The translations under genes and the position numbers were made by a program. A DNA stretch of 21,407 nt from a virus, in UHGV virus genome UHGV-0286550. One strand, given 5' to 3'. The notes under the pieces were generated by a model. It was not told the origin of the DNA, did no database searches, and worked only from the letters and a program-made list of their open reading frames with translations. Below, one piece after another: positions 7,277-8,807 of this stretch (the stretch's first letter is position 1; each line of letters opens with the position of its first letter).

Positions 7277-7987
7277 ATGAAAAATAAATACATCGCCAAA
7301 ATTAAAAAGCTGTTACGCCTTGCAAGAGGGACATCAAGCCCGGAAGAAGCCGCTAACGCTATTGCAAAAGCCCAGGCTTATATGCGCCAGCATGGTATCA
7401 GCGAAAACGACGCGGAATTGTTCGACATTCAGGACGCTGCCAGCGCGGGTGCGCCGAGTGATGCCAGTACACCGCCGCGTTATATGCACATCCTGTGTGA
7501 TCTGGTCTGTAAAGCCTTCGGTGTCGAGTGTTACATCTCCGGCGAATACCGGGCTTCTGGTTCACTCAAACGTTACGTTCGTTTTTATGGTCCTGACAGC
7601 CGCCCGGAAATCGCGGCCTACGCGTTTGATGTGCTTTCCCGTCAGATGATGGCAGAGCGCAAGAAATATCAGGATAAACACTGCAAACGTTGCGGCCCGT
7701 CCACGCGGGTGGCCCGTGGCGACCAGTTCTGCGAAGGCTGGGTCTTTGGTGCCCGTGATGTCATTGCGGTGTATGACGTCTCCCCGGAAGAAAAAAGCCG
7801 CCTTGAGCTTTACAGAAAGAACCTGCACAGCACCAAGGGACTGCGCGACGGGGATATGCGCACCGCTAAAGCGTGCCGGGGTGCAGAGTCTGCCGCTACA
7901 GCCGGTTTTATCGCCGGGAAAAACGCCAGACTGCATCAGGGGGTTAATGGTCAGAGCAACAAAACGCTGGCACTGGGGAGGGTGTAA
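7277..7987 (+). CDS. DUF2786-like phage protein with Cys-rich C-terminal region (236 aa)
   Basis: N-terminus KIKKLLRLA...S.EEAANA..KAQAYM matches my recollection of the DUF2786 signature. Central HCKRCG...FCEGW suggests a metal-binding module. Confidence 0.55.
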   Translation: MKNKYIAKIKKLLRLARGTSSPEEAANAIAKAQAYMRQHGISENDAELFDIQDAASAGAPSDASTPPRYMHILCDLVCKAFGVECYISGEYRASGSLKRYVRFYGPDSRPEIAAYAFDVLSRQMMAERKKYQDKHCKRCGPSTRVARGDQFCEGWVFGARDVIAVYDVSPEEKSRLELYRKNLHSTKGLRDGDMRTAKACRGAESAATAGFIAGKNARLHQGVNGQSNKTLALGRV

Positions 7988-7989
7988 CG

Positions 7990-8217
7990 ATGGCTTTTAA
8001 ACTTCTCAGTGTTACCGAAGCAATATACCAGCCGCCCGGAGAACGCCACGAATACAGGATGGATGACGGTAGCGCAGCGGTTGAGTTCCCCGGATATCCG
8101 GGGGCTTCCCGGTGGCGGTTCTATGACAGTGCGGGACGCCGGATTATTAAAAGAACCGTGCACAACGCCATGAAAGCCGCCGTAGAACGCCATAAAAGGA
8201 GGTTTAACTGCAAATGA
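7990..8217 (+). CDS. Hypothetical small protein (75 aa)
   Basis: ATG 3 nt after the previous stop with GGAGG 8 nt upstream. Confidence 0.5.
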   Translation: MAFKLLSVTEAIYQPPGERHEYRMDDGSAAVEFPGYPGASRWRFYDSAGRRIIKRTVHNAMKAAVERHKRRFNCK

Positions 8218-8438
8218 ATATTGAATTTTATGAACACAATGGTACCGCAGTTATCACTATTTCCTGCTGGTTCTGGGAGTTCCGTCACTATTGCCGGGTT
8301 GTGGATGCGGCGCTGTTTGTGGCCCCTGAAGTGCACCATAAGAGTGATGGAGGCCTTTTAATGAGAACCGTCATCTACGGTAAGAGGGTCACGATGTTAC
8401 GGGCGTTTAAAGTGGCAAAACAGGAGGCGGCGCAGTGA
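8214..8438 (+). CDS. Hypothetical small protein (74 aa)
   Basis: ATGA start/stop overlap with the upstream gene; AAAGGAGG upstream. Confidence 0.5.
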   Translation: MNIEFYEHNGTAVITISCWFWEFRHYCRVVDAALFVAPEVHHKSDGGLLMRTVIYGKRVTMLRAFKVAKQEAAQ

Positions 8439-8623
8439 ACCAGCAAACCAGAATAAGCGATAAGAGCCTGGCCAGACTGATTGCCGATGCGGACAAGGTG
8501 CTGGATCGGAACACCCCCGTTGCCGATGAGGTATGGTGGCAGGATTTCCGGGCCGCAATGCTGGAACTTCAGGCGCGCCGCAGGGCTGATAGTGCAGAGT
8601 CAGTGGTAAATACAGGAGAATGA
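8435..8623 (+). CDS. Hypothetical small protein (62 aa)
   Basis: GTG start in a GTGA overlap with the upstream stop; AGGAGG at 6-nt spacing. Confidence 0.5.
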   Translation: MNQQTRISDKSLARLIADADKVLDRNTPVADEVWWQDFRAAMLELQARRRADSAESVVNTGE

Positions 8624-8627
8624 AACG

Positions 8628-8807
8628 ATGAAAAACCGTAAAGCAAGACTGCTGATAGCAAAACCCGGACAGCTTATCCGTATCTCAAATCGGCTTGTTG
8701 TTCGCTATAGATATCTTGGTTTTAGGGAGTGGTCCTCTATTCGTTTTTACGGTGTCTGGCGAAACAGAAGCGCAGCCCAAAACCGCTGGAAAAATCACGG
8801 TATGTAA
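8628..8807 (+). CDS. Small Arg/Lys-rich protein (59 aa), absent from the ORF track
   Basis: ATG at 8628 with AGGAG 9 nt upstream; open to TAA at 8805-8807. Product MKNRKARLLIAKPGQLIRISNRLVVRYRYLGFREWSSIRFYGVWRNRSAAQNRWKNHGM is strongly basic. Below the 60-aa track cutoff. Confidence 0.4.
   Translation: MKNRKARLLIAKPGQLIRISNRLVVRYRYLGFREWSSIRFYGVWRNRSAAQNRWKNHGM

Follow-up and report, generated by a model that had tools for sequence, protein, structure and literature searches.

In phage Mu, a semi-essential early region that includes kil, gam, sot, arm, cim and lig lies between B and gemA/mor, and the many small genes that the early transcript carries from B to gemA are dispensable or accessory. 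In the Pseudomonas Mu-like phages, the core is broken at fixed sites, mostly in the left arm, by variable ORFs of 34 to 100 codons (Cazares et al. 2014, PMC4378225), and these accessory ORFs are thought to have been horizontally acquired; an architecture of core genes plus small accessory ORFs is therefore already described for Mu-like phages (PMC4378225). [quoted passage not shown] A gene cluster that includes ParA and DUF2857 has been described in ICEs (PMC3334931); the DUF2857 protein is BisC, a subunit of the master activator of ICEclc (PMC7423338). In the literature on these ICEs we found no reported role of a DUF2786 protein in their regulation, and a literature search for functional studies of DUF2786/DUF7168 returned none.

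Gene chain and early operon

We analyzed a 21,407-nucleotide stretch of the virus genome UHGV-0286550 (the window), which carries a transposable E. coli prophage of the B3/Mu-like type. By ORF calling, five ORFs of 236, 75, 74, 62 and 59 aa on the same strand tile positions 7277-8807, and their chain spans 1,531 of 1,531 nt.

7277-7987, + strand: g236, 236 aa, ATG start
7990-8217, + strand: g75, 75 aa, ATG start, beginning 2 nt past the g236 TAA
8214-8438, + strand: g74, 74 aa, overlapping the end of g75 through ATGA
8435-8623, + strand: g62, 62 aa, GTG start, with a GTGA overlap with g74
8628-8807, + strand: g59, 59 aa, beginning 4 nt beyond the g62 TGA

An earlier reading made from the DNA letters (the sequence-only reading) had described tiled and overlapping small ORFs here, and its coordinates, the 2-nt gap, the ATGA and GTGA overlaps and the 4-nt gap were all reproduced. 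It had also assigned each small ORF its own Shine-Dalgarno motif, and motifs are indeed present 5′ of all four (GGGGAGGG, AAGGAGG, CAGGAGG and CAGGAG for g75, g74, g62 and g59, respectively); g236 has just a weak, distant GAGG. The arrangement exceeds chance expectation. Over 1,000 shuffles that preserved dinucleotides, the longest chain had a mean of 300 nt and a maximum of 906 nt, and five ORFs were never chained. Six complete E. coli genomes carry the stretch 7277-8807 at 99.8 to 99.9% identity, and in several of them PGAP calls all five genes. Related prophages keep each of the five ORFs intact, and dN/dS values of 0.05 to 0.86 show that all are under purifying selection. An ncRNA explanation for the region was rejected, as the only Rfam match was a JUMPstart element at 29-67, and around 6900-7300 nothing reached significance.

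Each of the four small proteins hit PHROG families, with E values from 8e-10 to 2e-39. No characterized family was matched by the small proteins in Pfam, PHROGs, NCBIfam, PADLOC or PDB, and sequence and profile searches of NCBIfam, PADLOC and PDB gave nothing significant for any of the five. The small proteins had gone unrecognized in the sequence-only reading, and the profile searches that it had itself proposed bore this out. Because these proteins match no characterized family, the five are not a set of characterized Mu proteins, and the earlier reading does not fall on that ground. The five proteins are already present in public databases as hypothetical proteins and PHROG families. They are encoded by real genes, yet in an ordinary, already catalogued kind of phage region.

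The surroundings of the chain contain the following features.

1798-1826, + strand: Pe-like sigma-70 promoter match (TTTACA-17-AATACT), a consensus match alone, 5′ of the ner-like gene
6807-6998, + strand: g63, a conserved 63-aa gene, phrog_5591
7028-7061, + strand: hairpin/inverted repeat with core GGCGTAAACCCGCCGGGGCTGGCTTACGCC, conserved and always directly 3′ of g63
7081-7263, + strand: 60-aa ORF of putative coding status within the 279-nt gap 5′ of g236
8820-9230, + strand: g136, 136 aa, after a 12-nt gap, with AAGGAGG and a signal-peptide-like N-terminus, phrog_8805
10055-10075, + strand: strong intrinsic terminator (9-bp GC-rich stem plus T-run) 3′ of gemA
10087-10114: promoter-like site between the terminator and mor

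As g136 follows g59 after 12 nt, the chain does not end at 8807. The earlier account of a five-ORF block was thus right about the five ORFs themselves but not about its extent, since the chain runs on into g136, a gene absent from the E2348/69 relative. On the left, g63 closes a conserved block of DUF3164, ANR-family and g63 genes, and the hairpin at 7028-7061 marks the start of the variable zone that contains the five genes. The hairpin is tied to g63 and not to the DUF2786 gene because it is kept in phages without DUF2786. The 60-aa ORF is annotated by PGAP in one sister genome, an antisense ORF is called at its place in E2348/69, and relatives have DUF7448 or other genes in its slot.

The gene order is ner-like gene, transposase A, B, small genes, DUF3164, ANR-family gene, g63, variable zone and gemA. 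By consensus matches, the region has the layout of a Mu-like early (Pe) operon, with the genes between B and gemA/mor on one strand and a terminator after gemA; the operon is presumed from these signals to start near 1800 and to end at 10055-10075. Simple scans of the + strand from 5000 to 10055 found no strong terminator and no promoter-like site, and by such scans the block 7277-8807 is delimited by neither. From gene order and these consensus scans we infer that the five genes are cotranscribed. The gene order agrees with the earlier description of co-oriented, tightly packed, overlapping genes in a transposable-phage early region, whereas the "operon" of their own proposed there is better replaced: the five genes are probably an internal slice of a single ∼8-kb early operon, a slice made up of three layers, namely g236, g75, and the trio of g74, g62 and g59. 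As members of that operon, they would be made along with the transposition proteins once repression lifts. Their tight packing and start/stop overlaps would then reflect normal compaction and translational coupling, not a dedicated five-protein machine.

Properties and distribution of the five genes

The first gene had been called DUF2786-like and Cys-rich in the sequence-only reading. Pfam upheld the family above its gathering threshold (PF10979, residues 4-43, 49.1 bits versus a cut-off of 23.9, E = 5e-13) and added a second domain, DUF7168 (PF23771, residues 60-187, 102 bits versus 25.5, E = 3e-29). The protein belongs to phrog_421 (E = 1e-70), and its predicted fold consists of a DUF2786 helical hairpin and a DUF7168 alpha/beta core. 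In a family alignment of 48 sequences, with conserved columns taken as those invariant or at least 90% identical, g236 carries the family-conserved K11, L12, L15, E24, A28, Q33 and M36, the YAFDVLSRQ helix and the ADQFCEGW motif. Cysteine richness turned out to be a local trait. Of seven cysteines, just C152 is at least 90% conserved among the 48 sequences, the CxxC at 136-139 is restricted to close relatives, and conserved Cys pairs or clusters are absent from the family-wide alignment. A zinc-binding or Cys-rich class for g236 was rejected on this count.

By tblastn, g236 homologues were found in 165 phage records, including Pseudomonas B3- and D3112-like phages and Ralstonia and Shewanella Mu-like phages; phage Mu was not among these matches. 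DUF3164, MuA or MuB genes lie upstream of g236 relatives in about 30 of 80 species loci. Across many transposable phages g236 is conserved by vertical descent. Some related transposable phages that retain the flanking framework lack it, and it is therefore not indispensable. Its context points to a function for the element itself rather than to host takeover or anti-defense. It may serve the element's own DNA-processing or regulatory program, likely as a nonenzymatic binding or adaptor protein that is possibly nucleic acid binding.

The g75 product is a 75-aa basic protein (pI 10.1, phrog_9400) that, in the phage records and loci examined, was seen only in Mu-like prophages and phages. Its gene is mostly found directly 3′ of the DUF2786 gene, in further genera as well. 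With the lowest dN/dS among the small genes (0.05 to 0.17), g75 is strongly constrained, and it usually travels with g236. Paralogy of g75 and g74 was rejected (hhalign probability 0.5%). We note that the g75 profile has a near-match to 2k57, a 61-aa "putative lipoprotein" (E = 0.14); this match stems in part from alignment of the His tag with the basic C-terminus and is a lead only.

For the 74-aa product of g74 (phrog_1001), a confident structure model predicts a beta-beta-alpha-beta-beta-alpha fold of the ACT/ferredoxin-like alpha/beta sandwich type. The likeness to ACT domains is structural only. Identity to proteins of this fold (aspartokinase regulatory domains; permuted BMC shell domains) is 9 to 17%, no Pfam ACT match places g74 in the ACT sequence family, and g74 is a stand-alone 74-aa protein. 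The ACT/ferredoxin-like fold is very common. A BFVD search with the g74 model matched solely one uncharacterized phi24B protein. The gene evolves much faster than its neighbors (dN/dS up to 0.86), being 70 to 81% identical at loci where g75 is 91 to 99% identical. Because of the confident ACT-like model and this fast evolution, g74 is the one gene best suited to an assay of host interaction or ligand binding. Homologues occur in lambdoid phages (Fels-1, Klebsiella prophages and phi24B), upstream of xis/int in Fels-1 and Klebsiella and, in Fels-1, four genes upstream of xis.

The acidic 62-aa product of g62 (pI 5.0, dN/dS about 0.3) belongs to phrog_14672 and phrog_7520. The first ∼50 aa make up a module that recurs in two other forms, a protein of 54 aa and the N-terminal half of one of 102 aa; the phage matches of g62 were three Yersinia phages only. 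Comparison with the ead/Ea22-like and DUF4752 proteins showed no similarity, and a relation of g62 to them was rejected. The 59-aa product of g59 (phrog_1380, dN/dS 0.45) has a pI of 12.0, in line with its earlier description as very basic, and the GC content of the gene is 0.44 versus 0.53 for the window. Homologues of g59 were found in 132 phage records, including 933W, D6, P1 and Sergei, and occur in Stx phages (933W early-left region), D6/P1-like phages and Sashavirus. They lie repeatedly downstream of an ead/Ea22-like gene; the unannotated 933W homologue sits between such a gene and p08.

In each of the 11 enterobacterial Mu-like loci examined, g236, g75 and g74 adjoin one another, and the g75/g74 ATGA overlap is kept in the same 11 of 11, down to 65 to 68% protein identity. 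Both g75 and g74 are constant within these relatives and absent or variable further out. The presence of g62, g59 and g136 varies among these loci, and the three show the variable presence, fixed site and core flanks of plasticity-region accessory ORFs. Genes encoding ead/Ea22-like, DUF4752 and DUF4014 proteins occupy the same slot in sister Mu-like prophages. The five genes are not one module, because sister prophages carry DUF4752, ead/Ea22-like and other genes inserted between g74, g62 and g59, or lack both g62 and g59; in E2348/69, g62 and g59 are three genes apart. In the favored early-operon reading, g74 and g59 come from a pool of small early genes common to enterobacterial temperate phages, examples being the early-left regions beside xis/int in Fels-1 and 933W and the accessory regions of P1/D6. 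Taken together, the small genes split into g75, which is specific to Mu-like phages, g74 and g59, which are exchanged with lambdoid, Stx and P1-like phages, and g62, which is exchanged with three Yersinia phages. This split documents gene flow between phage types of differing lifestyles.

Alternative explanations

In the accessory layer of the favored early-operon reading, the products of g74, g62 and g59 may be small binders that would modulate host physiology, host defense or the choice between lysis and lysogeny. An island in which some or all of g75, g74, g62 and g59 inhibit host immunity or host proteins overlaps with this layer, and for the small accessory genes host takeover or anti-defense is a reasonable guess; as the explanation of the locus, we consider such an island possible but unlikely. 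A fast-turnover early slot would ensure that inhibitors are made first, and the high turnover and mosaicism of the slot, the small size of the proteins, the absence of enzymatic domains (Pfam, PHROGs), the fast evolution of g74 and the low GC of g59 would all suit it, as would the occurrence of anti-CRISPRs among the accessory ORFs of Pseudomonas Mu-like phages (PMC4378225). However, the anti-CRISPR slot of Mu-like phages is known from the late region, not the early one (PMC4378225), the characterized exo-xis genes of lambdoid phages act on lysis-lysogeny rather than immunity, and no known anti-restriction or anti-defense family was found in Pfam or PHROGs, nor any PADLOC match. The Ral, ArdA, Ocr and KlcA/ArdB families gave no match to the five proteins (Pfam, E up to 0.1; PHROGs), so that the anti-restriction role in the sequence-only reading found no sequence support. 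The same reading had also proposed toxin-antitoxin-like modules; that any of the coupled small ORFs form toxin-antitoxin pairs, or pairs of an abortive-infection type, we regard as very improbable. The likeness is generic only (small, overlapping, co-oriented genes, with acidic g62 beside basic g59), and no toxin-antitoxin family was matched in Pfam, NCBIfam or PADLOC; ParE-like genes were found elsewhere with the same Pfam library, so the method is able to find such genes. Moreover, the pairing of g62 and g59 is not conserved, as Stx, D6 and Sergei phages have g59 but no g62, and the g75/g74 pair is not obligate, with g74 but no g75 in lambdoid phages and g75 but no g74 in distant Mu-like phages.

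The conserved contiguity and ATGA overlap of g236, g75 and g74 in all 11 enterobacterial loci, together with the position of g75 downstream of g236 in further genera, would also fit a dedicated multiprotein module, in which these three proteins or all five form one complex and translational coupling sets its stoichiometry. Their constant adjacency could mean that the cassette picture underrates a functional unit. Yet such a complex appears improbable: another gene separates g236 and g75 in several genera, and in a Klebsiella Mu-like phage without g236, g75 follows a 178-aa protein whose kinship to g236 was rejected on comparison. In addition, more distant Mu-like loci with g236 and g75 have no g74, g74 stands alone in lambdoid phages, g62 and g59 are split by inserts or missing, and the ICE relatives of g236 work without any of the small genes. 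That some small ORFs arose by chance in intergenic or regulatory DNA might be suspected for g75, which PGAP often leaves uncalled, in several genomes, and which has few database homologues. We find this hardly credible, as the ORFs remain uninterrupted across genera, their dN/dS lies well under 1 (lowest for g75), all four small proteins fall into PHROG families and no shuffle chained five ORFs. A more specific proposal, and one we hold doubtful, is that the DUF2786/DUF7168 protein acts as a regulatory or DNA-processing cofactor in the switch of phages and ICEs to their active (lytic or transfer-competent) state, with g75 as its phage-specific partner and the hairpin at 7028-7061 gating this part of the early operon.

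Comparison with known systems

The semi-essential region of Mu has the same genome place and the same operon logic as the five genes. None of the five proteins showed homology to a named Mu early protein in Pfam, NCBIfam or PHROG, and, GemA apart, the scanned window proteins matched no Mu-specific Pfam family, Mu Gam included; DUF3164 here occupies the place that Gam has in Salmonella relatives.

A different setting for g236 is the regulatory/partition operon of ICEclc, PAPI-1, SPI-7 and GGI-type ICEs (ParA, ParB/BisD, DUF2857/BisC, DUF1845/AcaB, SSB and TopB), which holds relatives of 33 to 45% identity. In 26 of 80 species loci, g236 relatives lie in clusters of the order ParA, DnaB, a 564-aa protein, DUF2786, DUF2857, ParE-like and, further on, AcaB (DUF1845) and TopoIII, the DUF2786 gene being directly upstream of and adjoining DUF2857. 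The 564-aa protein, at the position of ParB/BisD, has no Pfam match. These clusters differ from the locus here in that none of the four small genes is present. The DUF2786/DUF7168 family is thus a conserved early-module gene of transposable phages and of a major ICE family, and as it is conserved in both classes of element it is a sensible target for functional work.

Among phages, the closest counterparts of g236 are ORF5 of Pseudomonas phage B3 and the D3112-like gene (e.g., HKPH_J3 gp17), to which it is 32 to 33% identical over 77 to 99% of its length. They share its Pfam architecture, are annotated as "conserved hypothetical" and occupy a like position, after B, one to three genes upstream of gemA/mor and on the same strand. 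Similarity and position together indicate that g236 corresponds to B3 ORF5. The B3 and D3112-like loci differ in their downstream genes and do not share the extra g236 cysteines.

The small genes lead to other systems. The exo-xis or "ea" region (ea22, ea8.5, orf60a, orf61, orf63 and orf73) has early-left counterparts in 933W and Fels-1 that hold homologues of g59 and g74, respectively, between recombination or ead/Ea22-like genes and xis/int; g59 and g74 thus belong to the lambdoid exo-xis/ea gene pool, whereas g75 is confined to Mu-like phages. The homologues there are uncharacterized, and the window itself is without an ea22 gene. The "regions of genomic plasticity" of Pseudomonas Mu-like phages are matched here by g74, g62, g59, g136 and the inserts of sister prophages, although the Pseudomonas accessory ORFs belong to another host clade and have no sequence relation to the ORFs in this window. 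Unlike in the Pseudomonas case, g74 and g59 are demonstrably common to lambdoid, Stx and P1-like phages. The region conforms well to an established pattern, that of small accessory ORFs in a Mu-like early operon.

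Anatomy and probable early-operon setting of the five genes

The block at 7277-8807 consists of five genes, which we named by the length of their products and read from an ORF listing and directly from the sequence.

Features of the block
7277-7987, plus strand: g236, 236 aa
7990-8217, plus strand: g75, 75 aa, starting 2 nt past the g236 TAA
8214-8438, plus strand: g74, 74 aa, ATGA overlap with g75
8435-8623, plus strand: g62, 62 aa, GTG start, GTGA overlap with g74
8628-8807, plus strand: g59, 59 aa, 4-nt gap after g62

These coordinates agree with those of the sequence-only reading for all five ORFs. 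Good Shine-Dalgarno motifs were found 6-9 nt 5′ of g75, g74, g62, and g59 (GGGGAGGG, AAGGAGG, CAGGAGG, and CAGGAG, respectively); for g236, there is only a weak, distant GAGG. The five-ORF chain covers 1531 of 1531 nt. When 1000 dinucleotide-preserving shuffles were scored for their best same-strand ORF chain, the mean was 300 nt and the maximum 906 nt, and a chain of five ORFs arose in none of the 1000. Related prophages carry all five ORFs intact, with pairwise dN/dS values of 0.08 (g236), 0.05-0.17 (g75), 0.28-0.86 (g74), ∼0.3 (g62), and 0.45 (g59). All five are real protein-coding genes. Six complete E. coli genomes carry the same 1.5 kb at 99.8-99.9% identity; PGAP labels it as a 'DUF2786 domain-containing protein' followed by three or four proteins called hypothetical. 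Hundreds of public contigs encode proteins identical to four of the five, invariably named 'hypothetical' or 'DUF2786 domain-containing.'

By gene content, the window is a transposable (Mu-like) E. coli prophage. The genes 5′ of the block encode, in order, a repressor (minus strand), a ner-like HTH protein, transposase A, B, small ORFs, DUF3164, an ANR-family protein, and g63 (63 aa). Those 3′ of it encode g136 (136 aa), another hypothetical protein, GemA, Mor, holins, endolysin, DUF1804, a DNA methyltransferase, terminase, and portal.

Transposition genes
2123-4165: Mu-type transposase A
4184-5077: AAA+ B protein

The sequence-only reading had taken the five genes as an operon of their own. 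This is contradicted by scans of the flanks of 7277-8807, which detected neither a promoter-like site nor a strong terminator bracketing the block, and by the chain itself, which runs past 8807 into g136 (8820-9230) across a 12-nt gap with an AAGGAGG motif. The sole strong plus-strand intrinsic terminator within 5000-11000 lies at 10055-10075, right after gemA (bidirectional-looking, AGCCCCTGC-CTT-GCAGGGGCT plus a T-run), and a promoter-like site lies ahead of mor at 10087-10114 (TGTACA-16-TATAAT); we take the two to resemble Mu's early-terminator/middle-promoter arrangement. A match to a Pe-like (early) promoter was found at 1798-1826, 5′ of the ner-like gene. Because a terminator appears only after gemA, bracketing signals are missing, and the Pe-like site lies upstream, the five genes seem to be an internal slice of one ∼8-kb early operon, and from gene anatomy we infer that they are co-transcribed with it.

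The adjoining g136 has a signal-peptide-like N-terminus (MKKMVFVAALLTITQQVHASAA...), matches phrog_8805, shows a dN/dS of 0.2, and is missing in E2348/69. It may be an accessory protein that acts in the periplasm or at the surface, e.g., for superinfection exclusion. Elsewhere in the window, an imperfect 20-nt palindrome at 9338-9381 (GACCAAAACATGTGTTTTGG / CCAAAAGTAATGTTTTGGTC) overlaps the start of a 104-aa ORF 5′ of gemA, and a JUMPstart RNA element (Rfam RF01707, 58.5 bits) lies on the minus strand at 29-67, at the extreme left, presumably in host DNA flanking the prophage end.

Distribution of g236 among mobile elements

Two domains of the g236 protein score over the Pfam cut-offs, DUF2786 at the N-terminus (E 5e-13) and DUF7168 (E 3e-29), and the protein matches phrog_421. 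It had no NCBIfam match and none in the PDB by sequence or profile search, and a functional study of either domain was not found in the literature. In an alignment of 48 sequences, the invariant positions were hydrophobic and charged residues of the N-terminal hairpin, the YAFDVLSRQ helix, and the ADQFCEGW motif. C152 alone is conserved among the seven cysteines, and the earlier label 'Cys-rich' therefore fails as a family property.

The family is present in 165 phage records, mostly of transposable phages (Pseudomonas B3- and D3112-like, Ralstonia, Shewanella); B3 ORF5 and its D3112-like counterpart occupy the same slot as g236, past B and one to three genes ahead of gemA and mor. When a single genome was scanned for each species, 80 loci were retrieved, ∼30 of which have DUF3164, MuA, or MuB upstream. 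Another 26 sit in a different element (L031 and 25 further retrieved loci, e.g., L025-L045, with the homologue near locus position 6000), in the order ParA, DnaB-like helicase, 564-aa protein, DUF2786/DUF7168, DUF2857, ParE-like, 412-aa protein, AcaB (which we take to be the former DUF1845), and topoisomerase III. ICEclc, PAGI, and GGI-type integrative conjugative elements (ICEs) have this order as their conserved DNA-processing/regulatory cluster (PMC3334931); BisC, the DUF2857 member of the cluster, is one subunit of the ICEclc transfer competence master activator (PMC7423338). ICEclc/PAPI-1-type clusters bearing DUF2786/DUF7168 occur in many Enterobacterales; some hardly differ between genera, as one would expect of recently spread ICEs. 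The phage and ICE contexts together thus mark g236 as a gene conserved in many mobile elements, lying among replication, partition, and regulatory genes, and it does not resemble the usual host-takeover moron. The gene is not found throughout: in some related transposable phages, the flanking framework is kept but g236 is absent.

The small genes and the variable zone

The four small proteins match uncharacterized PHROG families (g75, phrog_9400; g74, phrog_1001; g62, phrog_14672/7520; g59, phrog_1380), and none had a meaningful match in Pfam, NCBIfam, PADLOC, or PDB sequences. The most constrained of the four is g75 (pI 10.1), which turned up solely in Mu-like elements, namely Enterobacterales prophages and phages plus one Pseudomonas phage. 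It usually lies directly 3′ of g236 or one gene beyond; in a Klebsiella Mu-like phage, an unrelated 178-aa protein precedes it. Gene callers frequently miss g75, which PGAP or the gene caller left un-annotated in L002 (the E2348/69 locus), L086, L087, L088, L090, and L092, and because it is un-annotated in many genomes, the protein database yields only 12 homologues.

In each of 11 enterobacterial Mu-like loci, with identity as low as 65%, g74 adjoins g75; more distant Mu-like loci do not have it. It also occurs in Klebsiella prophages and in lambdoid phages, e.g., Fels-1, four genes 5′ of xis/int. Its family is small (1.84 billion proteins clustered at 50% include 14 representatives of it, nearly all ∼74 aa), and g74 diverges much faster than its neighbors. 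The N-terminal module of g62 (pI 5.0; module ∼50 aa) recurs in E2348/69, where the protein is 54 aa long, and in another E. coli prophage, where it forms the N-terminal half of a 102-aa protein; among phage records, g62 matched three Yersinia phages only. Homologues of g59 (pI 12.0; GC 0.44 versus 0.53 for the window) were found in 132 phage records, including Stx phages, D6, P1, and Salmonella phage Sergei. The homologue in Stx phage 933W is un-annotated, between an ead/Ea22-like gene and p08, and that in P1-like phage D6 is orf101, directly 3′ of an Ead_Ea22-domain gene. The five genes, closely packed along a single strand within the early region, form three layers: g236 is a conserved mobile-element gene, g75 was seen only in Mu-like elements, and g74, g62, and g59 are shared with other phage types.

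Sister Mu-like prophages keep a frame of DUF3164, ANR, g63 ... g236, g75, g74 ... gemA, mor, and the remainder varies. In E2348/69, a DUF4752 gene separates g74 from g62, which is shortened, and three genes, one ead/Ea22-like, separate g62 from g59. Other E. coli, Salmonella, and Citrobacter relatives have DUF7448, DUF4014, 128-139-aa, or 102-aa genes in the slots, or lack g62 and g59. A Salmonella Mu-like prophage (L093/L094) retains the g63, g236, g75, g74 frame with a Mu Gam gene in the place of DUF3164, so that DUF3164 and Gam seem to take each other's place within this group of phages. The inserted ead/Ea22-like, DUF4752, and DUF4014 genes and the g59/g74 homologues tie the variable part to the lambdoid early-gene pool, which, taken as a region, influences lysogenization, induction, and host physiology (PMC3824215, PMC7093339, PMC10789677).

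The 279-nt gap 5′ of g236 contains a hairpin/inverted repeat at 7028-7061 (core 7030-7059, 30 nt, GGCGTAAACCCGCCGGGGCTGGCTTACGCC) with an AT-rich tract ahead of it. It occurs once in the window and matched no Rfam family. Across 13 Mu-like prophage loci representing nine enterobacterial genera, its core hardly varies whereas its flanks diverge, and three of the pairs show compensatory changes. Its place is constant, just 3′ of the homologue of g63 (6807-6998) and ∼20-25 nt ahead of the first gene of the variable zone between g63 and gemA, which in several genera is the DUF2786 gene; it was also found in 11 IMG/VR contigs, some without DUF2786. The hairpin may be an RNA processing/translation-control site, a protein-binding palindrome, or, since a T-rich run follows on the minus strand, an antisense-transcript terminator. 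Most of the gap is filled by a 60-aa ORF (7081-7263, plus strand), a candidate gene. PGAP called it in one sister genome and an antisense ORF instead in E2348/69 (L002 5694-5912, minus strand); it is 93-100% conserved in very close relatives only, and DUF7448 or other genes take the slot elsewhere.

Possible roles and known counterparts

The five genes would be expressed from Pe alongside the transposition genes, their overlaps probably giving the translational coupling typical of compact phage operons. We suggest that g236, probably an adaptor or binding protein, has a DNA-processing or regulatory role that serves the element itself, and that the small proteins may be non-enzymatic binders tuning host physiology, lysis-lysogeny choice, or host defences. 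We favor, with some confidence, this picture of a layered early-operon slice with an element-serving g236 and small accessory binders, the anatomy being much surer than the function. A genuine anti-defence island, which would overlap the accessory layer of this picture, is unlikely, and a dedicated complex of g236, g75, and g74 is more unlikely again. Toxin-antitoxin pairs among these proteins would be very surprising, and, given chain length and constraint, that the ORFs are non-genes is scarcely credible.

Homology to Mu's characterized early proteins was not found; the closest functional counterpart of the block is the semi-essential early region of Mu. The block is an uncharacterized new instance of a known region type and no surprise for a phage specialist. 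Useful leads are the two-element distribution of DUF2786/DUF7168 and the fast-evolving g74, for which a confident ACT-like model is predicted. The closest known relatives of g236 are B3 ORF5 and its D3112-like counterpart, the closest known operon for its family is the ICEclc-type regulatory operon, and g59 and g74 come closest to the lambdoid exo-xis region. For the block as a whole, the closest known regions are the accessory regions of Pseudomonas Mu-like phages, whose accessory ORFs are of 34-100 codons, of unknown function, and clustered in the left arm (PMC4378225); the core-plus-accessory architecture already described for those phages ('regions of genomic plasticity'; PMC4378225) is the same as that of the sister Mu-like prophages.
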